A DNA stretch of 62,535 nucleotides from Patescibacteria group bacterium (GCA_042570465.1 JBHPGO010000002.1:1-62535), one strand, 5' to 3'; numbered from the stretch's first letter, positions 959-62,535 are shown. The notes: generated from the letters alone by a model not told the origin. Made by a program: numbers and translations.

Positions 959-2035
959 CTATGTATATCCGTACGGGCAAGGATTAGCCGCGGCAATTAA
1001 AATAAATTCAGCTGGGTAACTGACTGTTCCCATTGCCCTGGAAATTGTCACCACCCCATCCTCCATCGGTTGCCTTAAGGATTCTAAAACATGGCGGGGA
1101 AATTCGGGAAATTCATCTAAAAACAAAACGCCTCTGTGAGCTAAGGAAATCTCTCCTGGCTTTGGCTTAGTTCCTCCACCGATTAAACCAATTCGGCTGG
1201 TAGTGTGGTGAGGTGAGCGAAAGGGTCGGCACTTGATAATCGAATTTCCTAAAGAAAGATTTCCGGTAATTGAGTAGATCTTGGTTGTCTCTAAGGCTTC
1301 ATCCTCCGTCAGATCCGGCAAAATTCCCGGCAAAGCCCTGGCAATCATTGTTTTACCCGCTCCTGGTAAACCTCGCATAAAAAGATTATGGCCACCAGCA
1401 GCCGCAATTGTCATCGCCTGCTTAGCATGCTCTTGGCCTTTGATCTCGGCCATATCAAACTCTGCCTCAACTTTGGTAATCAACGAAGAATAACTGATGT
1501 GTTTCTGGGGCTTTGCTTGGCCAGCTTCAATCAAATGATTAAAAAGAACTTGTAAAGAGTCGATCGGATAAACTTCAATCCCCTTAACAATAGCGGCTTC
1601 TTGAGAGTTAGCTCTGGGTAAAAAAACATTTTTCAACTTTTTTTGCTTGGCCAGTAAAGCCATGGGTAAAACACCGTTGGTGTGCCTCAAAGAACCATCT
1701 AAAGAAAGCTCTCCCATAAAAAGAGAGTCATCAAGACAGTCAGTGGTAATTTGCTCGGAAGCAATTAATATTCCTAAGGCAATCGGCAAATCATAGGCCG
1801 GACCTTCTTTAGGAAGATCAGCCGGGGCTAAATTGACCGTGATCCGATGTTTGGGAATCTCATTTCCGGAGTTTTTAATGGCGGTGAGAACCCTTTCCTT
1901 TGATTCTTCGACCGCCTTATCCGGAAGACCAACAATCTTGAAAGCCGGCAGGCCTCGTTTGGTGACATCAACTTCGACGATCACCGGCACACTGTCAAGT
2001 CCAACCGTAGCTCCTGATTTTACTTTAGCTAACAC
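959..2035 (-). CDS. comM: YifB/ComM family Mg-chelatase-like AAA+ ATPase, C-terminally truncated
   Basis: N-terminal Lon-like domain ([24 protein letters not shown]), Walker A GLPGAGKT, Walker [10 protein letters not shown]. It ends at [11 protein letters not shown], inside the conserved NPCPCGY motif. The sensor-2/C-terminal domain expected in family members is absent. Confidence 0.8.
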
Positions 2036-2110
2036 TAAATCAATAATATCAGATTTATGGTTCTAAATTAAGGCTTCTTGAAACGGATTCTGAGAATTGA
2101 AAAGAAAGAA

Positions 2111-2125
2111 GCCGACCGTGTCGGC
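2111..2125 (-). terminator. weak hairpin downstream of relE
   Basis: gccgac-cgt-gtcggc stem-loop, followed on the minus strand by a T-rich run (ttctttcttttc). Confidence 0.3.
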
Positions 2126-2237
2126 CTTTGGCGAGCATTGATTAAATAGTACCAAAATTAGGGATTTTTTTCCAAAACAACTTATCTTTATTTAGCCAAT
2201 AAAGGTTGAAAAGTTCAGAATTGAATCTGGACTGAAT

Positions 2238-2504
2238 CTACTTGAGTAATTGTTTTAAGAGTCGGTAAATATCTTTACGATGACCAATTAAAACTATGTA
2301 GAGCAAGCTTTTTGTTTTTTTATAAACAATTCTATAGAAGCCAATTCTTACACGATAAATGCTTTGATACCCGGTGAGCTTCTCTTTTTGGGAAATTTTC
2401 TTGTCTTTTTTCAGGGAACGAATTTTTCGAACAATGGCAATTTGGTCAGTTTTGGGGATTTTTTTGAACTGTTTTTCAGCTCGAGGAGAAATTATCACCT
2501 TCAT
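2238..2504 (-). CDS. relE: RelE/ParE family type II toxin
   Basis: 88 aa. C-terminal KLTGYQSIYRVRIGFYRIVYK...IVLIGHRKDIYR matches the RelE/ParE signature. 4-nt overlap with the upstream antitoxin gene. Confidence 0.85.
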   Translation of the reverse strand: MKVIISPRAEKQFKKIPKTDQIAIVRKIRSLKKDKKISQKEKLTGYQSIYRVRIGFYRIVYKKTKSLLYIVLIGHRKDIYRLLKQLLK

Positions 2505-2740
2505 AGACCTAGCTCTTTAGCTACTTTCTCAAAATCTTTTCCCTTGGAAAAATCGGTTTTAGCCACCGCTGAACGGTCAATAAAATCCTCGATATAAGCC
2601 ACCATTTTCTCGTACAATTCCTTACCAACCAGGTAGGCCTTAACCTGATTCCTTTTTTCCACTGCCAAAGGATAATCAGCCGCCTGGGAAATGGCTTTGG
2701 CGGGTCGAGCCTTAAGTTGAGAAATTGAAACACTGTTCAT
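2501..2740 (-). CDS. Phd/YefM family antitoxin
   Basis: 79 aa. MNSVSISQLKARPAKAI...AVEKRNQVKAYLVGKELYEKM follows the Phd/YefM N-terminal pattern. Translationally coupled to relE. Confidence 0.75.
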   Translation of the reverse strand: MNSVSISQLKARPAKAISQAADYPLAVEKRNQVKAYLVGKELYEKMVAYIEDFIDRSAVAKTDFSKGKDFEKVAKELGL

Positions 2741-2749
2741 AATATATTT

Positions 2750-2786
2750 ATTATACCGAATAACAGGTCTCTTGTCAAGACCTGTT
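2750..2786 (-). promoter_or_regulatory. consensus sigma70-type promoter with overlapping operator palindrome for the TA operon
   Basis: Minus strand reads TTGACA (2773-2778), a 17-nt spacer, then TATAAT (2750-2755), with ATG 9 nt downstream. A 9-bp inverted repeat aacaggtct/agacctgtt (2762-2770 and 2778-2786) straddles the -35. Confidence 0.7.
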
Positions 2787-2907
2787 TATAGTCAAAAGAC
2801 GGCCAACACTACTAAGATTTAATTTCGATTGGGATTTACTTGGGTGATGTGGGAAGGTTTTTTATTATTTCAGGCACGCTCTAAGCTCAAATTTTCCTAC
2901 TGACTCT

Positions 2908-3390
2908 CTATTTTCCCGGATCAAAACTAAAGCCATGAAGTTGAGAATAATACTTAAGACCTTTGTTAACATTCTTTTTCCTTCCTTTCGTATGCCACTC
3001 ATCATTTCCAAGATACACAAGGCCAATATTGTCCAAGTAACATTTTGCTTTCTGACATAGCTGAAAAGGAGTTAAAATCTCACCTTCTTTGATTTGACAT
3101 CTGTCCATTATTCGCCTATCAACATAGTTATTAAATTCTTCCTTAAGTTTAAAGTCCTTTCTGTGATTCACCACATCGTCACAATGGCCACCCTTGAGGT
3201 GAGAACAACCATCGCAAATACTGTCATAATCAACAACAATTTTGATTTTAAGTTTGGGATTAGAGCGAATCAGTTGGGCAATTCTATGGAACGAATGGCC
3301 ATCAGGATGAGGTTCAATTTTCTTTCCAACTCCAAAATCCCGAATTACATCGTAAAAATGATGAACCCTAAGCCTAACTGATTTATCCAT
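2908..3390 (-). CDS. DUF1284-like cysteine-rich protein
   Basis: 160 aa. LRVHHFYDV start and the ICDGCSHLKGGHCDD cysteine cluster resemble the DUF1284 pattern (LRGHH ... C..C ... C). Confidence 0.5.
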   Translation of the reverse strand: MDKSVRLRVHHFYDVIRDFGVGKKIEPHPDGHSFHRIAQLIRSNPKLKIKIVVDYDSICDGCSHLKGGHCDDVVNHRKDFKLKEEFNNYVDRRIMDRCQIKEGEILTPFQLCQKAKCYLDNIGLVYLGNDEWHTKGRKKNVNKGLKYYSQLHGFSFDPGK

Positions 3391-3479
3391 ACCCCTATTC
3401 TACTAAATACACTCTTTGGGGAAAACTAAAGATACCCATGAAGCTCAAATCTTCCCATTAACTTCTTAATCAGTTAAAT

Positions 3480-3521
3480 CCTTTAAATTAGATGCCACGA
3501 TCGTGGGATGTATTTTAAAGG
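3480..3521. repeat. nested-palindrome repeat, copy 1 of 2
   Basis: cctttaaattagat-gccacgatcgtggg-atgtattttaaagg. The loop holds the perfect palindrome ccacgatcgtgg. Second copy at 61199-61240. Confidence 0.8.
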
Positions 3522-3715
3522 ATTGGTGGGTGATTAATATCAAATTACTATTAATAACTTAAATATCGCTCATGCCTAACTTGCTTCTATGAATTAATTC
3601 ATTAATACAAAAGAAAGGCCATAAAATAATTGAATGAGATTGGCGGACTCGATAAATAATTATGAGAGAAAGGAACAAGTGTCTACCTACTTCAAATTCC
3701 TCGTCCCAACTCGAT

Positions 3716-3760
3716 TCGACTCGCGTCGAAGCGGGTCGACCCGAGGCGAACCTAAGTCAC
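3716..3760. repeat. ACCTAAGTCAC-type structured repeat
   Basis: tcgactcgcgtcga...gggtcgacccgaggcgaacctaagtcac is closely similar to 5798-5830. Confidence 0.7.
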
Positions 3761-4633: not shown

Positions 4634-5698
4634 ATGCCTGCCAAGTCAAAGAAAAAGAAATCACCCCGATTTAAGCTTCCTAAAATTGGTCTGACTAAAA
4701 ACCTAAAAATTCTTCTTGTTGTCCTCACAATTTGTACTCTTTTGGGCGGCTTAATCTCCGGAGCTTTAGTTGTCCGAAAAATTATGGCCCCAAGATGCAG
4801 TGAATGCGAAGGGATGATTACTGAAATGACAATGGAATATACCGGAGAAAGACCGGCCAAGGTCAAGGTAGTTCAAAAATCAGATGAGGCGACAGTTTTT
4901 GATGAAACAGTTGAGCCAGGTAAAGAATTCACCTTTAAAGGAACCTGGGACCAGGGAACCTTATCAAACACAATCTCGATTTACACTGATGACCAAATTC
5001 ACACCGTAATTGACACCAGCTGTTCTGACTCAAGAGTCGCCCCGGGTGCCATCTTCGGCAATTTTAAAATCGTCGCCGCCAAAAGCAAGCTGGGGGGAAA
5101 TATTTGCCAAATACCCGAAATTATCTGCCAACAACCACCGGATTTACACTGCCCAGACGGAGGCGAAAAACACGACTCTGGTAGCGGCTCGGTTGAAAAA
5201 AACGGCGTGACAATTTCTTGGAGCGAAAAAACAGTCACTGTTAGTGGTGGAACAGCCACTTTCTGTGTCAAAGCCTCAGTCAGCAACAGCGACAAGGTCA
5301 CCATCACTAATAGTTCTTGGACAGTTGATTGGAAAAATAAAAGCGAGCAAACTCCCAACATCAGCTATCTTGTCGTTTATGAGGCTGGACCCGAGTCCAC
5401 CCCAACGCCAACTTCAACTCCCGAGTCCACCCCAACGCCGACAAACACTCCAACCCCAACGCCAACCGGTACCCCTGGCCCAACCGGTACCCCAACGCCA
5501 ACCTCAACCCCGACGCCGACGGGGACTCCAGTACCGTCTTCAACACCAACCCCAACACCGACCATTAGCCCTGCTTTTGCCGGAGATGGAGACCAACTAC
5601 CCTTGGCCGGCAATAGAGAAACAATCACCTTTTCAATCCTTGGATTACTTCTCTTCCTCTTTGGTGGTTTAACCCTCTTTCTCCCAAGGCGGGAATAA
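4634..5698 (+). CDS. secreted surface protein with Pro/Thr-rich linker and LPXTG-like sorting signal
   Basis: N-terminal signal anchor and a Cys-containing globular region. A roughly 60-aa PT-rich linker ([27 protein letters not shown]...). C-terminal LPLAGN, hydrophobic helix and PRRE tail. Confidence 0.75.
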
Positions 5699-5751
5699 AA
5701 TAAGCAATTCACTCCCAAAACTAAAGAATACTCTATAAAACTGATAATATC

Positions 5752-5896
5752 CCAGGGGTGTCAACCTAAGTCACCCCTGGGGTGGAAAAGGTGGCGTCTC
5801 GACTCGGGTCGATCCGAGGCGGACCTAAGTCACCCCCGCCAAAAACTCACTTTGTTCGTATTCAGGCAGGCAGGCCCTGGGGTGGAAAAGGTGGCG
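5752..5896. repeat. composite GC-rich repeat block
   Basis: Hairpin ccaggggtg-tcaacctaagt-cacccctgg. 22-nt direct repeat ccctggggtggaaaaggtggcg at 5775-5796 and 5875-5896. Palindrome tcgactcgggtcga. Hairpin ggcgg-acctaagtcaccc-ccgcc. Confidence 0.8.
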
Positions 5897-12665: not shown

Positions 12666-13435
12666 TGTCTGGACTAAAATTAGCCGCAATTTACGGATTT
12701 CCCCCATTCAAGCTCGGTTTTTGCGGACCCGAGGGTGAAGAGAGCCTTGATTCCTTGATTGGTTTTATTAAGGGCGAGAAGGTCTTGGCTGAAAAATCAA
12801 GAAAAATCTTGAGCCGTTTTGTTGCCGCCTATCCTTATTATCGGCTGATTGCCAACAGCAACAGGATCAAAAATCCTTTTGATAAAAAGGTAGTTGAAGC
12901 CTATTGGCTGGGAAATCAGCTGCTTGACAATATCCCTCCATCAGCTTTAAAAAAAATGATTTTAAATGATTTTTACCAACCGGGTTTGCCGGACCGAATT
13001 CAACTTAAAAAAACCGTTGCCACGATCCCCGCTGCTGCCAAGGCCCACCACAGTTTCCATGTCTTGTTTATCGGTTCAGTTACCGGCAAAGTTGAGTTCA
13101 CTGATAAAGTCAGAGATATTTGCCGAATTGGCTGGGGAAGGGTTAACAAAATCAAAAATCAATCCGCCGGCTGGCGGATAAAAATCAAAAATCGACCACT
13201 AAAGCAACAAAACGATCGATATTACTTAGCTGAGGAAACTAAAAAAGAAATTAATTGGGATCGAGACTTTGTCCCTCAAGTAAAAATCGGCGATATTGTT
13301 TCTTTTCATTGGGGACAAGCTTGCCAAGTTTTAAATAAAAAAGAAGTAGAAAACTTAGAAAAGTATACTCAATTAAATATTAAAGCCTTTAACACACAAA
13401 TATTATCTTCCTCGTTTCACCCTCCAGGAGACTAG
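12665..13435 (+). CDS. conserved hypothetical protein with HypC-like C-terminal region
   Basis: The C-terminal segment ICRIGWGRVNKI ... KIGDIVSFHWGQACQVLNKKEVENLEKY parallels HypC (MCIGVPGQI ... GQWVLVHVGFA...EAEA). The N-terminal 150 aa (YGFPPFKLGFCGPEG) has no family I can name. Confidence 0.5.
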   Translation: MSGLKLAAIYGFPPFKLGFCGPEGEESLDSLIGFIKGEKVLAEKSRKILSRFVAAYPYYRLIANSNRIKNPFDKKVVEAYWLGNQLLDNIPPSALKKMILNDFYQPGLPDRIQLKKTVATIPAAAKAHHSFHVLFIGSVTGKVEFTDKVRDICRIGWGRVNKIKNQSAGWRIKIKNRPLKQQNDRYYLAEETKKEINWDRDFVPQVKIGDIVSFHWGQACQVLNKKEVENLEKYTQLNIKAFNTQILSSSFHPPGD

Positions 13436-13471
13436 CTGAAATATTGCTCCACCTGGAAGGTGGCTCACGAC

Positions 13472-17600: not shown

Positions 17601-17614
17601 AAAAAGCAAAACAT

Positions 17615-17644
17615 CCCGAGGTTGCCTACTTGGGCAACCTCGGG
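17615..17644. repeat. GC-rich hairpin repeat, copy a
   Basis: cccgaggttgcc-tacttg-ggcaacctcggg, a 12-bp stem, 14 nt after the stop of the preceding gene. Confidence 0.85.
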
Positions 17645-17702
17645 AGTTGGTAAAACATTTTGCTATAGTTTTAAATAATCGTGGTTATTTATTTCCAATG
17701 AT

Positions 17703-20148: not shown

Positions 20149-20838
20149 ATGAAAAACAAAAAACTATTACTCTCAAGAGTACTTACAGCTCTTTTTTTCT
20201 CACTTTGTTTTCTAACGATTTCTACTCCTATAATCGCCAAAGATTTTCCAGTAATATATTTATTTTACGGAACAGGGTGTCCGCATTGCGCGCAGGTAGA
20301 AAAGTATTTTGAGGACCAAGATTTGCTGAATAAATACTCCGTAGAAAAGAAAGAGATATATTTTAATCGAGACAATGCAATTCTTTTTAATAAGCTTTTA
20401 AGTGAACGAGGCATCCCAACTGAAGCACAAGGAGTTCCTGCTGTAGTTATTGGCAATAAAGCTATCGTAGGGGACAAACCGATTATCGAAAACTTTATTC
20501 CTGAAGCTGAGATATTTTTACAACAAACCGAAGAGCAATTTAATCTTAATAGTGAATCTCAAAAAGAAGCTCAAGACCAAAGATTGGATTTAACCATAGC
20601 CGTAGTCATTGGAGCCAGCATTGTGGATGCAATAAACCCTTGTGCTTTTGCAGTCTTAATAATCCTGATGACAACAATATTGGCAACGGGTAACGGAAAG
20701 AAAGCATTGAAAGCTGGTGTAGCCTTTGCCTCCTCTATTTTTGTCTCATACTTCCTCATGGGATTGGGACTATACAAAGCTTTGGGGATAGGTGAAGTCT
20801 CAGGATTATCCTGTCAACCCCCGAGGTTGCCTAGGTAG
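20149..20838 (+). CDS. thioredoxin-fold / CcdA (DsbD-family) fusion, truncated after TM2
   Basis: Signal sequence, CPHC redox motif, then CcdA TM1 with DAINPCAF and TM2. The frame then runs into hairpin repeat b (GLSCQPPRLPR) and stops in its loop. TM3-6 and the second conserved Cys are absent. Confidence 0.7.
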   Translation: MKNKKLLLSRVLTALFFSLCFLTISTPIIAKDFPVIYLFYGTGCPHCAQVEKYFEDQDLLNKYSVEKKEIYFNRDNAILFNKLLSERGIPTEAQGVPAVVIGNKAIVGDKPIIENFIPEAEIFLQQTEEQFNLNSESQKEAQDQRLDLTIAVVIGASIVDAINPCAFAVLIILMTTILATGNGKKALKAGVAFASSIFVSYFLMGLGLYKALGIGEVSGLSCQPPRLPR

Positions 20839-20851
20839 GCAACCTCGGGGG
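20818..20851. repeat. GC-rich hairpin repeat, copy b
   Basis: cccccgaggttgcc-taggta-ggcaacctcggggg, a 14-bp stem, lying between two convergent stop codons (20836-20838 and 20857-20859). Confidence 0.9.
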
Positions 20852-20856
20852 TTAAA

Positions 20857-25579: not shown

Positions 25580-25618
25580 CCCCGAGGTTGCAATATATGT
25601 CAACCTCGGGGGTTGACA
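25580..25618. repeat. GC-rich hairpin repeat, copy c
   Basis: ccccgaggttg-caatatatgt-caacctcgggg, followed by gttgaca. Confidence 0.85.
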
Positions 25619-28994: not shown

Positions 28995-29045
28995 CCCGAG
29001 GTCACGCTTTTAACACGATCTGGGCAACCTCGGGGGGGTTGATTG
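28995..29045. repeat. GC-rich hairpin repeat, copy d (degenerate left arm)
   Basis: cccgaggt-24 nt-acctcggg, followed by ggggttgattg. The right half tgggcaacctcggg equals that of copy a. Confidence 0.7.
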
Positions 29046-40697: not shown

Positions 40698-40733
40698 CCC
40701 GAGGTTGCAATATGTGTCAACCTCGGGGGTTGA
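40698..40733. repeat. GC-rich hairpin repeat, copy e
   Basis: cccgaggttg-caatatgtgt-caacctcggg, followed by ggttga. It lies in a divergent intergenic region, so it is not in a terminator position. Confidence 0.85.
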
Positions 40734-48178: not shown

Positions 48179-48409
48179 ATGAGTCAAAAACAAAAAGAAA
48201 ACCAAATCGTTTTTCATGATCTGCTCAACTTTGCCTCTTCGATTCGCAACATACTCTACATCGTCATCATGAAAAAAAACCAGCCGGATAAGCAAACCGA
48301 AGAATACCTTAAAGACTGCCTGAACCGCTGTAACCAACTAATTACTGAGCTTCAAGGCTTTCAAAAAGACTTAAAAACTAAAAGTCCGAAACCAAGCCCC
48401 AAACAATAG
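48179..48409 (+). CDS. putative stand-alone DHp (H-box) helical-hairpin protein
   Basis: 76 aa. IVFHDLLNFASSIRNIL resembles a HisKA H-box helix and is followed by a second helix (EEYLKDCLNRCNQLITELQGF). The overlapping minus ORF 48083..48337 looks non-protein-like. Confidence 0.4.
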   Translation: MSQKQKENQIVFHDLLNFASSIRNILYIVIMKKNQPDKQTEEYLKDCLNRCNQLITELQGFQKDLKTKSPKPSPKQ

Positions 48410-49218
48410 ATTCCAAAAACCCAGAGTTTTCCTTTAGTCAAAACTTTCTTCAAACCAACCAGAGCCCAATAGCCTACTAAACTTGAAATTGCCATCCCGA
48501 CAATTGACTGAGTTAATATTCCTTTTTCAACAAACAATTGCCAGTGACTAGAAATATCAACCAACTGTAAAACTAAAGCTCCAATAATGGCTGGGATCGC
48601 CAATAAAAATGAAAAATAAAAAGCCTCTTCTTGATTTAATTTTTTAAAAAGTCCGGCCGCAATCGTCGATCCTGAACGAGAAACTCCAGGTAAAATTGCC
48701 AGGGCCTGAAAAAAACCAATAAAAAGAGACCTTTGCCAGGTTAAATTAATGACATCTCCCTCATTTTTCCACCTCCGAGGAGGGTGGCATAGTCCATGCT
48801 TCACCTCGGAGATGTTTTTGATTTTGTGGAATTTGGTAGATAGTAAAAATAAAGCAGTGACCATCAAAGAAACTCCTACTAAAGTAATTGAATCAAATAT
48901 TTTGCCTAATCGTGGCTGTAAAATCAGGCCGACTATGACTGCCGGCAGGGTTCCCAAGACTATCACCCCAGCTAATCGCCACGATTGCTTTTTTCTCCGA
49001 ATCAAGCCGGTTGCGATCTTGGCAATTTTTTTCCTGAAATAAACCAGCACTGCTCCTAAAGTACCGACATGAACCATCACATCAAAAAATATTGGCGGTT
49101 TTAGATCAAAATAATTTTGAAAAATTACTAAGTGTCCAGAAGAAGAAATTGGTAAAAACTCAGTCAAACCTTGAACAATAGCTAGAACAATCGACTGAAG
49201 GTAAGTCATCTTTTCCAT
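48361..49218 (-). CDS. uppP: undecaprenyl-diphosphatase
   Basis: LAIVQGLTEFLPISSSGHL and PGVSRSGSTI motifs. ATG at 49218 or 49209 is more likely than the track start 49266. Confidence 0.85.
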   Translation of the reverse strand: MEKMTYLQSIVLAIVQGLTEFLPISSSGHLVIFQNYFDLKPPIFFDVMVHVGTLGAVLVYFRKKIAKIATGLIRRKKQSWRLAGVIVLGTLPAVIVGLILQPRLGKIFDSITLVGVSLMVTALFLLSTKFHKIKNISEVKHGLCHPPRRWKNEGDVINLTWQRSLFIGFFQALAILPGVSRSGSTIAAGLFKKLNQEEAFYFSFLLAIPAIIGALVLQLVDISSHWQLFVEKGILTQSIVGMAISSLVGYWALVGLKKVLTKGKLWVFGIYCLGLGFGLLVFKSF

Positions 49219-49266
49219 CTTAACACACAAAAAATCTCGCTTTCCCCCTCGATAAAACCTTAACAT

Positions 49267-49290
49267 AAGGACCGACGATCGTCGGTCCTT
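49267..49290. repeat. perfect 24-nt palindrome
   Basis: aaggaccgacga/tcgtcggtcctt, between the rnpB terminator and uppP. Confidence 0.7.
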
Positions 49291-49315
49291 ATTGCAAATT
49301 TAGATTAACCCAAGT

Positions 49316-49338
49316 AAAAACCCCGAAAAATATCGGGG
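49316..49338 (-). terminator. rho-independent terminator of rnpB
   Basis: Minus strand: CCCCGA-tatttt-TCGGGG followed by TTTTT. Confidence 0.65.
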
Positions 49339-49346
49339 CCTTTAGT

Positions 49347-49769
49347 GTTCTTGAAAAAATCATAAGCCGGATTCTGTCTTGCCCGCCTAAATATTCCATA
49401 GGAATTTTTGGCGGGTCCTGCAGTCATCTGTCTAACCAAGCCTAATCAGATTAAGCGTTGATTCTCCGAAAATTCGGAGTGCCCTCGAACTTCGGTGTTC
49501 ACCGGGTGCCGGATGGTACCCGGATTACGGAAGACATCGCCCACCAGTCGGAGGTTGCAGCAGGGAGGGTTACCTCTTTTCACTCTCTATCCCTAGTTCC
49601 TTTTTGGAACCGGGTGAGTTGTCGTCTCTGTGGCCCTATCTAGTCCTCGACCCACCAGGGGGTCGGGATGTCCCGTTTCCGGGACCACCCTGTCTTCAGC
49701 TGTCCGGACTTTCCTATCTCGACCCTGATCGAAATCGGGGGTCGGATCGACTGCTCATTTTTCAAGAAC
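49347..49769 (-). ncRNA. rnpB: RNase P RNA, bacterial type A
   Basis: Minus strand contains GAUAGGAAAGUCCGGACAGC (P4 5' strand) and ACAGAAUCCGGCUUAUG (P4 3' strand). P1 pairs GUUCUUGAAAAAU with AUUUUUUCAAGAAC. GC-rich, structured, non-coding. Confidence 0.9.
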
Positions 49770-49980
49770 AAGGCTATTATACCAAAAAAAGGGGCAAATT
49801 TCATCTTTTGAGATGTTCTTAGAGGAAGACTAAGGGTAAAGGTTAAGGGTGAGACAGGGGTGAAATTTGGGGTGAAAAAACAATTTTGGAACTATAGGAT
49901 TTTAAGGGTTTTTAGAGGAAAAGATTAAAGGTGAAAAAGGGTTGAGGGTTGAAGAAAATCAGGATGAAATAAGAAAAAGT

Positions 49981-51336
49981 TTAAGATATTTTTAAGGGTT
50001 CAAGGGCGGGAAGTTTTTTGCCGGCGAGAAACTCCAGGGTCGCTCCACCGGCAAGACTGACGTGGGAAAAGGATCTCAAGTCAGCAAATTGATTGACTGA
50101 CTCGATGGTGTCACCACCGGAAATAACTTTAGTACCGTCAATTTTACTCATCGCTTGAACAACCGCCTTAGAACCGGTAGCAAAACGGTCATCTTCAAAC
50201 AAGCCCATCGGTCCATTGCAAAAAACAGTTTTGGCTTGAGAAATAATTTTTTGATAATGGCTGGCAGTTTGAGGACCAATGTCAAGAGCAACCCAGTCGT
50301 TGGGAACTAATTCCTTTTTCTCTCCACCCCGGGGGAGGCTGGCTTGAGAGGTGGCCCCACCCCCGGGGTGTTTTTCAGTCAGGCCACCATCCGGGGTGTT
50401 TTTAACGGAAACTATTTTAGTTTGTTTGGGATTATTAAGAGAATCGCCAAGGACTAGATCTAGAGGGAGGTGGATTCCTGATCCTCCACCTCGGAGGAGT
50501 CCCTGCGGGCCACCGTCCGAGGTGACTTTGGCTTTTCCCATTATTTCCCGGGCATACTCTACCCAGTCTTTTTTTTCTTTTTTAGCCTTGTCGACGAAGA
50601 CATCTTCCATAAAAGAACTCCCCATTTCAAAACCTTTTGCCTTTAGAAAAACATTGGCCACGCCGCCACCAACTAAAATTTGATCAACTAGGTTCATTAA
50701 ATTATTAATGGCATCGACCTTATCGGAAACTTTAGCCCCACCAATAACAACCACAAACGGTTTTTTGGGCTCGGTTATCAACTTTGAAAAAGCCTCAACC
50801 TCTTTTTGAAGGTAAAACCCGGCACAAGCCGGTAAGTGACGTAAAATCCCGGTGGTCGAAGCATGAATCCGATGGGCCTGGGGAAAAGCATCGAAAACAA
50901 CCAATTCCCCATTTTTGGCTAGTTCCCGAGCAAAACCATCATCGTCGATCATTTCTTCCGGATGAAAACGAGTATTTTCCAGCATTAAAAGTTCCCCCGG
51001 CTTTAAGGCAGTAATTCTTTCCCGAACCGCTTGACCGACACAATCATTAACCTTTTTCACCGGCTGACCCAATAATTCAGATAATCTACTGGCATGAGGC
51101 GTTGTCCGCAACGCTTCGACCACTTTTCCGTCCGGACGCTTTACCCAAGTCAAAAGCACAATCTTGCATTTCTTGCCCATTAAATACTTCAGCGTTGGTA
51201 GAGTGGCTTTAATGCGAGAATCATCTTTAACTTCAAGCTGACCGTTAACCTTTTTAAGACCAATGTCATATGGAGAACGATAAAGAATAATTTTACCTTC
51301 AACCGAAGTTTGCTTGAGGTCGATTAGTTTCATCAA
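49981..51336 (-). CDS. pgk: phosphoglycerate kinase with two loop insertions
   Basis: KIVLLTWVKRPDG, ENTRFHPEE, VIGGAKVSDK, WNGPMG-like CNGPMGLFE, ISGGDT. 451 aa versus about 395 typical. Confidence 0.9.
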   Translation of the reverse strand: MMKLIDLKQTSVEGKIILYRSPYDIGLKKVNGQLEVKDDSRIKATLPTLKYLMGKKCKIVLLTWVKRPDGKVVEALRTTPHASRLSELLGQPVKKVNDCVGQAVRERITALKPGELLMLENTRFHPEEMIDDDGFARELAKNGELVVFDAFPQAHRIHASTTGILRHLPACAGFYLQKEVEAFSKLITEPKKPFVVVIGGAKVSDKVDAINNLMNLVDQILVGGGVANVFLKAKGFEMGSSFMEDVFVDKAKKEKKDWVEYAREIMGKAKVTSDGGPQGLLRGGGSGIHLPLDLVLGDSLNNPKQTKIVSVKNTPDGGLTEKHPGGGATSQASLPRGGEKKELVPNDWVALDIGPQTASHYQKIISQAKTVFCNGPMGLFEDDRFATGSKAVVQAMSKIDGTKVISGGDTIESVNQFADLRSFSHVSLAGGATLEFLAGKKLPALEPLKIS

Positions 51337-51345
51337 TAAGAAATT

Positions 51346-52365
51346 TTATAATGACTTTGAAATTAATTTTAGCAGATCATAGAGCCGAGAGGTATAGCCC
51401 CATTCATTATCGTACCAAGCTAAAACCTTGACCAGTCGTTGACCAATAACATTTGTTGACAACCCATCAACAACCGCCGAGCAAGGCTCTCCCTTATAGT
51501 CAATCGAAACCAATGGTTCTTGACTAAAGCCTAAATAATTTTTCAAATGACTACGGCTGGCTAATCTGAAAGCCTGATTTAATTTATCGGCCGTGGTCGG
51601 TTTTTTTAGTTGGGCCACTAAGTCAATCAGCGAAACTGTCGAAAAAGGAACCCTGACCGACAAAGCGTTAAAGCACCCCTTTAGCTCCGGAAAAATCAAA
51701 CCAATCGCCTTGGAAGCCCCAGTCGTACTAGGAATAAATGAGTCTACCGCCGCTCGGGCAATTCTCATGTTTTTATGATGACTCTTGTCAAGCAGGTTTT
51801 GAGAAAGAGTCAAGGAGTGGATGGTCGTCAGTTGAGCACAACGAAGACCAAAACCAGCTTGAATTACCTTGACTAACATCGCCAAAGCATTGGTAGTGCA
51901 CGAAGCATTAGAAACAATTTGGTGCTTTTGGGGTCGGTACAGATGATGATTAACTCCTAAAACAATCGAAATATCTTCATCTTTGCCAGGGGCCGAGATA
52001 ATCACTTTCTTCGCCCCAGCACTCAACTGTCTTTCACAGTTTTCTCGATCTCGAAATACTCCGGTACACTCAGCAACTAAATCAATACCTTCTTTTCGAA
52101 AATTAATTTTACCGGGATTTTTGTCATCGTAAACCTTAATTTTTTGACCATTTATTTTTAACCAATCTTGGCCATGAGTAACCTTTTCTTTTAATACTCC
52201 ATAGGTCGAGTCATACTTCAGCAAATGAGCATGACTGGCCGCTCCAGCGCGACTATTGATTCCAAGAACTTGAATTTCTTTTTCACCAGATTGTAATAAA
52301 ATCCGATGTAAAACCCGACCAATCCGACCATAGCCATTGATCAATAAACTGGTTCTTTTTGCCAT
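51346..52365 (-). CDS. gap: glyceraldehyde-3-phosphate dehydrogenase
   Basis: INGYGRIGR, SNASCTTNALA, WYDNEWGY. ATG at 52365 is preferred over the track start 52419. Confidence 0.9.
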   Translation of the reverse strand: MAKRTSLLINGYGRIGRVLHRILLQSGEKEIQVLGINSRAGAASHAHLLKYDSTYGVLKEKVTHGQDWLKINGQKIKVYDDKNPGKINFRKEGIDLVAECTGVFRDRENCERQLSAGAKKVIISAPGKDEDISIVLGVNHHLYRPQKHQIVSNASCTTNALAMLVKVIQAGFGLRCAQLTTIHSLTLSQNLLDKSHHKNMRIARAAVDSFIPSTTGASKAIGLIFPELKGCFNALSVRVPFSTVSLIDLVAQLKKPTTADKLNQAFRLASRSHLKNYLGFSQEPLVSIDYKGEPCSAVVDGLSTNVIGQRLVKVLAWYDNEWGYTSRLYDLLKLISKSL

Positions 52366-59317: not shown

Positions 59318-60532
59318 TTACTTATTAATCATTTTATCAAGTAATCGCCACCTTCTTCGTTTCTCTGCCGGAGAAACATTATCTTTTAACTTAGTCGCCG
59401 CCGTGCCGGGACGAGGTGAATAGCGAGCCACATAAACCTTACTGAAACCAACTTTTTGGCAAAGCTTAACCGTATTTTCAAAGGCCTTTTTAGTTTCTCC
59501 GGGAAAACCGACAATAATATCGGTACCGATTTTGATATCCGGAATTTTTTTCCTGATTTTTTCGACCAATTTTATGTATTGTGCGGCAGAATAACCCCGA
59601 TTCATTTTTTTCAGAATTTCATCATCACCGGATTGGACCGGCAAATGCAAATAGCGATCAATTTTCGGCAAGGTCATTGCCTTGATAATCTCATCCGTCA
59701 AATCCCAAGGATTTGAAGTCAAAAATGAAATTTTTTCAATTTCTTTAATTTTATGAAGACTTTTTAGCAATTTAGCAAACTGCCCCTGATACCGATAAAC
59801 TAGTTTATCGGTATTAACTTTAACCCGTTTTTCTTTTGTTTTAGCTGGTTTTTTTACTGATCTAGTGAGAAAATCTTTACCATAACTATTAACGTTCTGG
59901 CCGATGAGAGTGATTTGTCGGTAACCCTGATTGGCTAATTCTTCAACCTCACAAACAATTTCTTCAAATGAACGGCTGATTTCCTTTTCTCTGGCAAAAG
60001 GAACCACGCAGTAAGAGCAAAAATGACTACAACCTTCCATGATCGGCACCAAGGCGCTGGTAGTCTTTAATCGCTTGGGCTTAACTGTTTTTTTCCCAAG
60101 CAATTCATTGATCGCTTTAAATCCATCGACCCGAGGAAGCCTTAATTTTAACTGGCGCATGGTGTAGCGACGCCTTTTGCCTTTAGCTGAACCGACCATG
60201 CAACCGGTCAAAACAATCTTTGGTTTTTTACCCTTCCACCCCTTCGGGATCACTCCAGTCCACCGATTCAAGGGATCTTCCAAGGAGTTCTTTGAGCCTT
60301 TGGGCCTTTGTACCTCTGTACCTTTTTTAATAAGATTATTTACTAATCCAAAAACGCGGTTTTCAGCAGACTCCCGAACAGAACAAGTATTAATAATAAT
60401 TTCATCAGCTTCCTCAATCCTTTTGGCAATCCGATAGCCTCTATTTTCCATCACCGCGGCCAAACGCTCACTATCGGCTTCATTAGCCGCACACCCAAAA
60501 GTTTTGATAAAGTAGGTTAGTGGTTTTGGCAT
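59318..60532 (-). CDS. miaB: MiaB-family radical SAM methylthiotransferase with insertions and no TRAM domain
   Basis: UPF0004 N-domain (FIKTFGCAANEADSE), radical SAM EGCSHFCSYCVVP, YSPRPGTAA. It ends about 25 aa after that motif. ATG at 60532. Confidence 0.8.
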   Translation of the reverse strand: MPKPLTYFIKTFGCAANEADSERLAAVMENRGYRIAKRIEEADEIIINTCSVRESAENRVFGLVNNLIKKGTEVQRPKGSKNSLEDPLNRWTGVIPKGWKGKKPKIVLTGCMVGSAKGKRRRYTMRQLKLRLPRVDGFKAINELLGKKTVKPKRLKTTSALVPIMEGCSHFCSYCVVPFAREKEISRSFEEIVCEVEELANQGYRQITLIGQNVNSYGKDFLTRSVKKPAKTKEKRVKVNTDKLVYRYQGQFAKLLKSLHKIKEIEKISFLTSNPWDLTDEIIKAMTLPKIDRYLHLPVQSGDDEILKKMNRGYSAAQYIKLVEKIRKKIPDIKIGTDIIVGFPGETKKAFENTVKLCQKVGFSKVYVARYSPRPGTAATKLKDNVSPAEKRRRWRLLDKMINK

Positions 60533-61137: not shown

Positions 61138-61198
61138 AGATAACTCTTCCCCTTTCTTATTTTTCAAATTCAATAAATAATTGTCTGTCTTTCAAAAA

Positions 61199-61240
61199 CC
61201 TTTAAAATAGATGCCACGATCGTAGTATCTATTTTAAAGG
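61199..61240. repeat. nested-palindrome repeat, copy 2 of 2
   Basis: cctttaaaatagat-gccacgatcgtagt-atctattttaaagg, a perfect 14-bp stem. Confidence 0.85.
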
Positions 61241-61301
61241 ATTAGTTAGTAAATAGTTTGTCTTTTCTGTTTCAATCACAATTCATCAAAATTATCATTT
61301 A

Positions 61302-62096
61302 CTAACTGGAGGCTGAAGAATACCGCCTTAGGGCATAGCGCCAAAAACGAAGCGAGGCCCAGAGAAAAACACCCCCCGCAAAAAGAGACAACAGTATCCA
61401 CGGCCAGGAGAGAACTCCAAGCAAGGCCTTGGCCGGCACCGTAATCAAAACCACTACCGGAATAGTAAAAGTTAAAACAAACCTGATCCCTTTTTGGTAA
61501 ATATCGGTTGGAAAGCGAGCCATGCTGGTTAAGTCCCGATAAACCCAAACTAAATGATCAATCTCAAGAGTAATAACTCCCACTGCACAAACAAAAAGAT
61601 GAAAGGCAAAAGAGATCACTAAACTATTTAACATCAGCACTAAAAATATAAAAAACTGAAAAACGCCTGCCGAAAGTTGATGGTGAAAAACAAACCAAAA
61701 AATATAAACCGATAAAGGCACTAAGGTAATGATGTCTAAAATATCTGTCCAACGGAAAACTGCTGAGAAAGATGAGGGCAAGGGTTTCAATAAATCTAAA
61801 TCATAATTACCGGAGACAATCCGAAAACGGAATTGGTAAACTCCTCGAAATAATACTTGGGCTAAAACGTCAACCAAATTAAAAACAAGAAAAAAGAAAA
61901 TTACCTGCTCTTTATTCAAACCAGCCAAAGATTTAGATGAAGATAAAATGGTGAATAAAAAAACAAAAAATATTAAAAATCTAACTATTTTGCCGATGAT
62001 AAAAAGGGCTCCGGCCCAGCTAGTTAAAAGCTGAGATTGAGCCGCCCGAGAGGTCATCTTTAACCAAACTTTGATGTATTTTTTTAGATTTTTCAT
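61302..62096 (-). CDS. ABC-2-type transporter permease-like membrane protein
   Basis: About 6 TM helices. ATG at 62096 (MKNLKKYIKVWLKM) is preferred; the upstream extension of the track ORF is encoded by a GC-rich repeat. Confidence 0.6.
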   Translation of the reverse strand: MKNLKKYIKVWLKMTSRAAQSQLLTSWAGALFIIGKIVRFLIFFVFLFTILSSSKSLAGLNKEQVIFFFLVFNLVDVLAQVLFRGVYQFRFRIVSGNYDLDLLKPLPSSFSAVFRWTDILDIITLVPLSVYIFWFVFHHQLSAGVFQFFIFLVLMLNSLVISFAFHLFVCAVGVITLEIDHLVWVYRDLTSMARFPTDIYQKGIRFVLTFTIPVVVLITVPAKALLGVLSWPWILLSLFAGGVFLWASLRFWRYALRRYSSASS

Positions 62097-62115
62097 TTTA
62101 GACTTTCTTCCTGTC

Positions 62116-62157
62116 TCCCTCCACCCCGGGGGAAGGCATTCGCCCACCCCCGGGGTG
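62116..62157. repeat. GC-rich CCACCCCGGGG-type repeat, intergenic copy
   Basis: tccaccccgggggaaggc...cccacccccggggtg matches the element inside pgk at 50322-50370. Confidence 0.8.
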
Positions 62158-62165
62158 ATTCGATA

Positions 62166-62535
62166 CTACCCTCCATAAGCACCATAATTCTTAACTCCTT
62201 TTTGCCAAAGCCATTTAGCCAAAAAGTAAAAAACTACCAGCCAAAGACTACAAACAATGATGGCTTTGTAAATTAAAATCAAGGATAGTTGCTCTAACCA
62301 TACCTTAAGCGGGAAAAATACCAAATAAGGAAACGGGGTCAGATATATGATTCTAGACAGCCAAGAAGGTAGAACATCAATTGGGAAAAAGGCTCCGGCC
62401 AAAAATTCTAAAAAAACAATTCCAAAAAGCCAACGAGTGGCCCAAATTTCTTCAGACCAAAAAGCCGTCACTGAGATAAAGACACTTAAAAAGAAAATTA
62501 CCTGCTCTTTATTCAAACCAGCCAAAGATTTAGAT
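62166..62535 (-). CDS. ABC-2-type transporter permease-like protein, 5' end beyond the right window edge
   Basis: The frame stays open to the window edge (...SKSLAGLNKEQVIFF...). Paralogue of 61302..62096, sharing an identical 48-nt block. Confidence 0.6.
   Translation of the reverse strand, partial: SKSLAGLNKEQVIFFLSVFISVTAFWSEEIWATRWLFGIVFLEFLAGAFFPIDVLPSWLSRIIYLTPFPYLVFFPLKVWLEQLSLILIYKAIIVCSLWLVVFYFLAKWLWQKGVKNYGAYGG

Follow-up and report, generated by a model that had tools for sequence, protein, structure and literature searches.

A GC-rich hairpin repeat family lying largely in frame inside essential genes of Patescibacteria

Introduction

The Rickettsia palindromic elements (RPEs; Ogata et al. 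2000/2002) measure ~100–150 bp, fall into ten families, and often lie in frame in metabolic genes (PMC10969869, PMC3733652); they are reported to end in CGTC (PMC3733652). Here we describe a shorter, GC-rich hairpin repeat of comparable behavior, found in a 62,535-nt stretch of DNA from a Patescibacteria group bacterium (GCA_042570465.1, JBHPGO010000002.1:1-62535; the whole of this stretch is called the window), a contig of the Candidate Phyla Radiation (CPR). Two copies lie in the gene pgk, a diverged one in uppP, and one between genes. A preliminary description, made from the sequence of the window alone, had drawn attention to these GC-rich inserts, likened them to RPEs, and remarked that such elements did not seem to have been described for this kind of organism.

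The repetitive extragenic palindromic (REP) sequences of other bacteria are 20–40 bp long and mostly extragenic, downstream of genes, with some intragenic members; they carry GTAG/CGTC tags, and G·T pairs are common in many of them (PMC3733652). [quoted passage not shown] Hairpins within genes are also known from organelles. The GC-rich palindromic 'byp' elements of some yeast mitochondria are bypassed, not translated. Mitochondrial genes of Nematomorpha carry coding palindromes, which are long perfect inverted repeats (PMC6649704).

The repeat described here is closest in behavior to RPEs and also resembles the intragenic minority of REPs, but is a member of neither group. It is widespread in CPR and lies largely in frame inside essential genes. 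As far as the literature is searchable in full text, which excludes most subscription journals, no description of such elements was found for CPR, Patescibacteria, Microgenomates, or Gottesmanbacteria, so that the family apparently has not been reported before, as the preliminary description had supposed.

Results

Inserts in Pgk and UppP

The window has a GC content of 39.9%, and its Pgk is nearest to proteins of Patescibacteria/CPR metagenome-assembled genomes (MAGs). The host genes and the copies of the repeat are listed below, with the evidence for each in brackets; R1 denotes a covariance model of the repeat, and numbers with L denote loci.

49981..51333, minus strand: pgk, host of two copies (PF00162, E = 1e-114; PDB matches 1PHP and 1VPE; AlphaFold2 predicted template modelling score, pTM, 0.80)
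50485..50526, minus strand: pgk insert 1, 42 nt = 14 codons, VTSDGGPQGLLRGG (codon alignment with L001 and L002; pattern match; R1; hairpin)
50326..50403, minus strand: pgk insert 2, 78 nt = 26 codons, KNTPDGGLTEKHPGGGATSQASLPRG (absent from 18 of 18 aligned relatives; R1; hairpin)
48361..49218, minus strand: uppP, undecaprenyl-diphosphatase of the BacA family, host of one copy (PF02673, E = 4e-74; PDB 5OON and 6CB2)
48757..48810, minus strand: uppP insert, a diverged copy, 54 nt = 18 codons, SEVKHGLCHPPRRWKNEG (R1; fold; alignment)
62111..62169, minus strand: intergenic copy, core 62119-62157 (pattern match; R1 49.8 bits; fold -37.8 kcal/mol, z = -4.3)
13418..13462, minus strand: possible degenerate copy, tentative, CACC-TTCCA-GGTGGAG...GTCTCC-TGGAG-GGTG, at the junction of two convergent ORFs (hairpin scan; weak partial R1 match, 14.6 bits, E = 0.06)
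Predicted insert-spanning peptides, examples: DTSDGGEATTSTPPRWR and TPRGWPNGLPRGG

The palindromic strings quoted in the preliminary description were all found in place. In place of its comparison of Pgk with the B. subtilis enzyme, we aligned the window protein to PDB chains and to 18 CPR relatives, among them the four closest at 67–74% identity. These alignments uphold the two extra segments; opposite 36 residues of chain 1PHP, the window protein has 89. The loop of insert 1 varies in length among other relatives too; insert 2 is unique to the window protein. The GC contents of inserts 1 and 2 are 71% and 65%, compared to 45% for the whole gene, and their hairpins reach -31 and -41 kcal/mol, respectively, in agreement with the self-complementary character that had been ascribed to them. 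The repeat core of insert 1 spans 50484-50524 (R1 match 50476-50536, 69.5 bits, E = 8e-17). Insert 2 comprises a full copy (core 50322-50370; R1 50.2 bits for 50314-50382) and, 5' of it, a partial additional 5' arm, AAAAACACCCCGGATGGTGGCCTGACTG (50376-50403).

An AlphaFold2 model based on the Pgk alignment has a normal Pgk fold. Residues 270-284 and 313-338 were modelled as coil with a predicted local distance difference test score (pLDDT) below 50; the inserts correspond to residues 270-283 and 311-336 and are flanked by confidently modelled strands. According to this model, both inserts occupy loops, as expected from the suggestion that they lie at the protein surface.

The block in uppP that had been called related to the pgk elements was recovered by R1 (29.4 bits, E = 6e-6, match span 48759-48826), with a fold z of -3.0. 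The insert falls between two conserved blocks of the alignment and is missing in 15 of the 15 nearest representative homologues as well as in E. coli UppP. The alignment of orthologues that had been recommended for defining the boundaries gave the same picture for both proteins, the inserts being absent from the closest Pgk and UppP orthologues.

The second pgk element had been reported to recur in the spacer near 62116-62157, and both the pattern and R1 place a copy at 62119-62157. It lies between two ABC-2 membrane genes (PF06182), is oriented like the downstream gene, and stands ~25 nt upstream of the likely ATG (62095) of that gene. Across the window copies, the hairpins range from -23 to -41 kcal/mol, and the three genic copies are the only GC-rich hairpins of ≥10 bp that the hairpin scan detected within window ORFs.

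The gene miaB, which like pgk and uppP is on the minus strand, had been named as a further host with an insertion at 60233-60320. This assignment was rejected: R1 gave no match there at E ≤ 10 with filters off, the fold was no better than that of shuffles (z = -0.49), and the segment is only ~10 residues longer than the same stretch of the solved MiaB 7MJZ. The proposed set of locations was thereby reduced to pgk (two copies), uppP, and the intergenic spacer. Weak R1 matches at 1166, 53057, and 5736 were found on inspection to be ordinary coding sequence or other palindromes.

Copies in other assemblies

On the coding (minus) strand, the three best window copies read CACC(Y)CGG..GGTGG-loop-TCC(Y)CCG(R)GGTGGAG. 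One and the same pattern fits both pgk copies and the one at 62119-62157, each of them on the minus strand, and had 0 matches in 100 shuffles. The GTDB collection (one genome per species; the window is not part of it) was scanned with this window-derived pattern. The scan returned 33 copies in 31 stretches, all from MAGs of 34–50% GC that are mostly labelled Microgenomates; the labels are mostly those of Gottesman-, Chisholm-, Curtiss-, and Daviesbacteria, Microgenomates, and Parcubacteria. Several MAGs with the repeat are titled "uncultured Gammaproteobacteria" (L006, L010, L013, L014, and L030, CAZJBV01, and six loci of six other assemblies with CAY or CAZ accessions). As the GatB of one of these MAGs is 66% identical to Gottesmanbacteria GatB, the title is doubtful and looks wrong.

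An alignment of 37 copies (A2) gave the consensus (AAGCGAT)AAAGA-CACCTCGGA(T)GGTGGC-[variable inner hairpin]-GACTCCTCCGAGGTGGAG-GAAT(CA), and conservation extends beyond the core by ~11 nt upstream and ~5–9 nt downstream. The family as a whole can be written as (AAGCGAT)AAAGA-CACC-N5-GGTGGC-[variable inner hairpin]-GACTCC-N5'-GGTG-GAGGAAT. The covariance model R1 was built from A2.

A second, independent scan was carried out on JGI metagenomes, in which only GGTGGC...GACTCC-NNNNN-GGTGGAGGAA was specified and the 5' arm was left open. Among the 70 matches, 53 lie on contigs of ~33–55% GC and have CACC or a one-base variant just upstream, and in these the five adjoining bases are complementary to the free NNNNN at all or all but one of the positions. 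Among the other 17 matches, the 12 on contigs of 55–68% GC have none of these features and no R1 match, and represent an internal negative control. R1 itself gave 53 non-overlapping matches in the GTDB loci and the window, and 64 in the metagenome loci.

The pgk (two), uppP, and intergenic sequences hence belong to one repeat family. From the two scans and R1, more than 100 further copies are known in independent CPR assemblies, mostly of Microgenomates, and ~75% of them lie inside ORFs. The search for genic and intergenic copies elsewhere, which the preliminary description had advised, therefore bears out its view of a dispersed, self-complementary, GC-rich repeat that sits in frame in housekeeping genes in the manner of RPEs, with a distribution far wider than the window.

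No Rfam family matches the elements at the gathering score across the window, nor at E ≤ 1 in 48300-51400, and a known RNA family was rejected as their identity on this ground. A viral contig collection contained 0 matches to the repeat and provided no evidence for a phage vector.

Hairpin architecture

Copies are ~55–85 bp long with ~60% GC, in genomes of 35–45% GC. Each copy is one long imperfect hairpin with the conserved base AAAGA-CACC...GGTG-GAGGAA, a freely covarying stem segment of 5 bp, sometimes with one bulged T, and an internal module, GGTGGC/GACTCC, which is conserved and asymmetric and contains T·T and G·A mismatches. The apical hairpin is variable and defines subfamilies, which are common to several genomes.

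In the A2 alignment, 97.7% of cells are paired, and the positions that the first pattern had left free covary (25 A-T, 12 G-C, and 0 unpaired). The stems of the 44 non-duplicate metagenome copies with exact CACC contain 214 Watson-Crick pairs, 1 G·T pair, and 5 mismatches in 220 positions; 15 distinct arm pairs occur in the metagenome set, ~11 of them fully complementary. Covariation of this kind indicates selection on the hairpin. That G·T pairs are almost missing accords better with pairing of DNA, or with a palindrome that is copied as DNA, than with a functional RNA of the usual sort.

One locus (L011, 1520-1876) carries three repeat copies within 360 nt of apparently non-coding DNA; two of the three have a different, compensated stem (CACCTTCCAGG...CCTGGAAGGTG).

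Placement relative to genes and reading frames

Copies were assigned to genes by a simple ORF rule. For the GTDB set and the window, ~33 copies are sense in ORFs, 7 are antisense in ORFs, and ~12 are outside ORFs; the corresponding numbers for the metagenome set are 23 (plus 6 near ORF starts), 23, and 12. Overall, about three quarters (~86 of ~110) stand in ORFs that continue on both sides. A strong sense-strand bias as a property of the family did not prove robust, the ratio of 33:7 in the GTDB set not being reproduced in the metagenome set (29:23).

Copies occur in intact ORFs of unrelated genes, in several frames and in both orientations. Sense copies are read in all three frames, the 5' arm as DTSDGG, TPRMVA/TPRGW, or HLGWW/HPGGG, and the 3' arm as DSSEVE, LLRGGG/LPRGGE, or TPPRWR. 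Since all three sense frames are used and antisense copies occur in ORFs too, conservation is at the level of the nucleic acid and not of the peptide. Stop codons are lacking from the conserved core modules in all six frames, and 70–87% of whole copies are open per frame, compared to 51–65% for shuffles. With lengths random modulo 3, about two thirds of the genic copies would be expected to break the ORF; essentially all of them keep the host frame and have no in-frame stop.

The hosts belong to at least 16 gene families identified by Pfam, among them ArgRS, UvrD, PheT, TsaD, GatB, M24 peptidase, Mur ligase, 5'-3' exonuclease, a TP_methylase-family methyltransferase, a CoA-ligase (SucD-like), a cytidylyltransferase/DUF359 protein, FtsJ, NiFe hydrogenase, RecF, GAPDH, and TatD. 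Three copies lie in one PheT gene. In one Gottesmanbacteria MAG, UvrD and an unrelated ORF of 704 aa contain identical 48-nt cores, and a third gene contains a copy that differs at one position; the 48-nt core is also present in other genomes. A near-identical core in non-homologous genes is a signature of dispersal and not of local loop evolution.

Outside ORFs, copies often stand just upstream of a start codon, in the orientation of the gene. The GGAGG tail is at Shine-Dalgarno distance in L010, L011, L014, and L030, and these copies look like insertions into ribosome-binding sites.

Hot-spot loops, empty sites, and decay

GatB ranges from 438 to 558 residues in these lineages, and the differences are confined to three or four loops. 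Every hot-spot loop is empty in one GatB (P0283/L102). Site 1 holds a sense copy in L013, L017, L101, and L103, and an antisense copy of another subfamily in L028. Site 3 is intact in L013, rearranged in L103, degenerate in L017, and empty in L102 and L028; L101 (GatB 1501-3018) has an unrelated palindrome, GGGGTCAGACCTTCAACGAATTCAAGGTCTGACCCC, there instead. The GatB loops of other lineages (proteins P0276-P0330) are filled with repeat-like peptides (..SPSAPRNDN.., ..FARNDN.., ..IATSPSAPRNDN..) or with N/K/Q-rich low-complexity sequence. As other palindromes occupy the same loops, CPR genes seem to host several in-frame repeat families. Orthologous copies decay. The loops are thus colonized repeatedly and single copies are not maintained, as would be expected for selfish DNA in both respects.

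Host residues that are conserved in element-free orthologues are encoded by the upstream flank (AAGCC.AAAG, which fits the flank consensus of the family) of pgk insert 1 and GatB site 3, and the empty junction reads AAG/GAGG(G)A or AAAAAAG/GAAAA. Both observations suggest that A-rich sites similar to Shine-Dalgarno sequences are preferred as targets or for homology. The GGCGATAAAGA flank is missing from the empty orthologue of GatB site 1, and the AAAAA flank of pgk insert 2 is not present in relatives; the flank motif AAGC..TAAAG is found unoccupied only twice in the 62-kb window. Shine-Dalgarno-like flanks as a general target rule were not adopted because the evidence is mixed, with the former two sites for and the latter two against. 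The handful of filled/empty pairs needs to be read with care, as all are at 50–75% protein identity or less and too distant to fix the ends of the element.

Other repeats and features of the window

A second hairpin family, (CAA)CCCCGAGGTTGC-loop-GCAACCTCGGGG(GTTGA), is purely intergenic and has five copies in the 62 kb. Considered as possible copies of the main family, these hairpins were set apart as a separate family with only faint R1 similarity (19 bits); they may be terminators or REP-like elements. Their positions are as follows.

17614-17645: copy of the CCCCGAGGTTGC/GCAACCTCGGGG family
20814-20855: copy of the same family
25580-25611: copy of the same family
40698-40727: copy of the same family
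~28995-29034: copy of the same family

The GC-rich block between uppP and pgk (49348-49764, minus strand) is a divergent bacterial class A RNase P RNA (70.8 bits, E = 9e-21). It scores below the Rfam gathering score of 100, so that a default search misses it, and it is not part of the repeat finding. Between this gene and uppP lies the perfect hairpin AAGGACCGACGATCGTCGGTCCTT (49268-49295), which looks like a terminator. A tandem duplication is suggested by a 59-nt stretch, 93% identical (61880-61938 and 62477-62535), that occurs in both of the ABC-2 membrane genes on either side of the intergenic copy (61302-62095 and 62166-62525).

An AT-rich palindromic repeat, AATCCTTTAAAATAGATGCCACGATCGT...TATTTTAAAGGATT, occurs twice in intergenic DNA (3476-3536 and 61195-61255, 84% identical). 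A 35-nt repeat, TCGACTCGGGTCGATCCGAGGCGGACCTAAGTCAC, with copies 89% identical, and a CCCAGGGGTG...CACCCCTGGG hairpin are found at 3716-3760, 5799-5833, and 5749-5783, flanking the ORF 4634-5698. This ORF contains imperfect tandem repeats of the ACCCCAACGCCAAC type (5399-5584), which apparently code for a Thr/Pro-rich low-complexity stretch.

Discussion

Relation to described elements

With RPEs, the CPR repeat has in common a dispersed set of palindromes, both intergenic and in frame in many unrelated housekeeping genes, conservation at the DNA level, inserts tolerated in apparently still functional proteins, and hosts with small, AT-rich, reduced genomes. It differs in being 55–85 bp long instead of ~100–150 bp and GC-rich, with a modular hairpin whose apical part is variable, in having neither CGTC nor GACG at either end of its consensus, and in spanning several candidate phyla, whereas RPEs are found in one genus. 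Compared with RPEs as they have been described, the resemblance is one of behavior and not of family, as size, composition, and end motifs differ.

Short imperfect palindromes with conserved mismatches or bulges, and subfamilies that arise by complementary stem changes, are also features of REPs and REPINs; here, too, the hairpin is presumably recognized as single-stranded DNA, and some REPs lie inside genes. In contrast to REPs, the CPR repeat is ~75% genic, ends in AAAGA-CACC / GGTG-GAGGAA with no GTAG/CGTC tag (GTGG occurs only inside GGTGGC and GGTGGAG), and has almost no G·T pairs. No REP-associated tyrosine transposase (RAYT) was seen in the window or the fetched loci, which were not examined systematically in this respect. 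MITEs are likewise small non-autonomous repeats able to make in-frame fusions with host ORFs, but they are mostly intergenic and have target-site duplications and terminal inverted repeats that match insertion sequences (IS), neither of which was found for the CPR repeat in the copies and the divergent filled/empty pairs compared here. The yeast byp elements and the palindromes of Nematomorpha are similar in that GC-rich or perfect hairpins lie in coding genes of AT-rich reduced genomes. They differ in being organellar, and the repeats of Nematomorpha are not a dispersed family with a conserved motif.

Origin and maintenance of the inserts

We consider it most probable, with a likelihood of roughly three in four, that the family is a non-autonomous, dispersed, selfish palindromic repeat of the REP/RPE type that is tolerated and translated in surface loops. 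Its mobility is suggested by the distribution of copies. New sites would be reached by a hairpin-dependent process, and the best-known precedent for the mover would be an HUH/tyrosine transposase of the RAYT or IS200-IS605 type that recognizes single-strand hairpins. To our knowledge, these transposases are the only well-understood machinery that needs imperfect single-strand hairpins and makes no duplication. As the genomes are ~90% coding and the modules are open, insertions that add a total length divisible by three and land in permissive surface loops of essential proteins would survive. Surviving copies would be transcribed and translated together with the host protein, giving disordered loops rich in Gly, Pro, Arg, Ser, and Asp, and individual copies would decay afterwards.

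Several observations weigh against this interpretation. No transposase or other partner came to light in the window or the fetched loci, and none was searched for systematically or genome-wide. Neither a target-site duplication nor a terminal inverted repeat beyond the hairpin was found, the entire element being a single inverted repeat. No direct repeat flanks the copies consistently, GA on both sides of CACC...GGTG being frequent and not constant, and the filled/empty pairs are too divergent in this regard. Core lengths of 37–61 nt cover all residues modulo 3, yet the ORFs stay intact, which does not fit a single cut-and-paste unit with constant ends; neither fixed ends nor a target-site duplication emerged from these comparisons. 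In two filled/empty comparisons, part of the flank motif is encoded by the host, whereas in a third (GatB site 1) the empty site does not have it, and the translation of the inserts is deduced from frame conservation. Near-identical modules in several candidate phyla are not what is usual for a repeat that is purely selfish and restricted to its host, and could mean either a conserved function or horizontal spread. In a bolder model, for which we see some but a small chance, the repeat would be more than decaying junk: a hairpin module common to CPR phyla would be recognized by a conserved enzyme or RNA-binding factor, prefer Shine-Dalgarno-like AAAG/GAGGAA sites, true ribosome-binding sites among them, pass from one distant lineage to another (DNA uptake being one possible route), and keep remodelling surface loops and translation-initiation regions of essential CPR proteins.

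That the repeat is a cis-acting functional hairpin of the mRNA or DNA, such as a stabilizing or processing site, a translational pause, or a device for Shine-Dalgarno masking, appears unlikely. The 3' arm and tail, GAGGUGGAGGAA, paired to a CACCUC arm that resembles an anti-Shine-Dalgarno sequence, would suit such a role, as would base and internal-loop modules that are conserved between several CPR phyla and joined to a covarying stem, the 33 sense versus 7 antisense genic copies of the GTDB set, and the non-ORF copies 5' of start codons whose GGAGG tail is at Shine-Dalgarno distance (L010, L011, L014, and L030). The sense bias, however, is not seen in the metagenome set (23, plus 6 near starts, versus 23), copies sit at arbitrary places of unrelated proteins, orthologous copies decay, and the elements have no Rfam match at E ≤ 1 in 48300-51400. 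G·U pairs are nearly absent (1/220), unlike in typical functional RNAs and many GTAG-REPs (PMC3733652). Spread with no dedicated transposase seems less probable still. DNA uptake would be followed by microhomology- or homology-assisted recombination or gene conversion at A-rich ...AAAG/GAGGAA... sites, and the flanks would reflect a need for target or homology. Such a route is consistent with the host-encoded 5' flanks and the empty junctions of pgk insert 1 and GatB site 3, with the lack of target-site duplications and fixed ends, and with the same subfamilies in distant lineages; it is at odds with GatB site 1 and pgk insert 2, where the relatives do not have the flank, and with the rarity of unoccupied AAGC..TAAAG in the window, and the filled/empty pairs it would build on are few and divergent.

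Removal of the inserts from the RNA like introns, or their bypass by the ribosome, so that they would be missing from the protein, is very improbable, even though strong hairpins in an AT-rich genome recall the mitochondrial GC clusters. Excision or bypass would force neither frame agreement nor stop-free reading, and the genic copies keep both, which argues that the inserts are translated, presumably as disordered surface loops. The element is, furthermore, much too small for a self-splicing intron, and no take-off/landing codon pair is evident. Ordinary lineage-specific loop expansions with incidental GC-richness and self-complementarity, or assembly artefacts, deserve next to no credence. 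Pgk insert 1 and the GatB sites do lie in loops that vary for other reasons, such as N/K/Q-rich segments. The same nucleotide sequence, however, recurs in non-homologous genes, in several frames and orientations, and in intergenic DNA; the pattern had no match in 100 shuffles, the stems covary, and copies are found in many independent assemblies of different projects, so that the shuffle, scan, frame, and covariation results already contradict this explanation.

Implications

The phenomenon itself has a clear precedent; what is notable is its scale: MAGs with the labels of several candidate phyla contain the repeat, and the same GatB loops hold other palindromes. With the motif and the covariance model, annotators can recognize the segments, which should help to keep functional domains, frameshifts, or assembly errors from being read into them. 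To a search for the enzyme that would move it, the modular hairpin, with its conserved base and internal loop and its covarying stem, offers a defined substrate, and such a hairpin together with its putative mobilizing activity makes the family worth following up. The hot spots of insertion mark out loops in essential enzymes where 14–40 extra residues are tolerated.

The usual description of CPR genomes is that they have few mobile elements. On the selfish-repeat interpretation, "selfish DNA inside protein-coding genes", best known from Rickettsia, would extend to this very large and uncultivated part of bacterial diversity, and it may provide a partial explanation for the odd lineage-specific loop insertions that are frequent in CPR housekeeping proteins.

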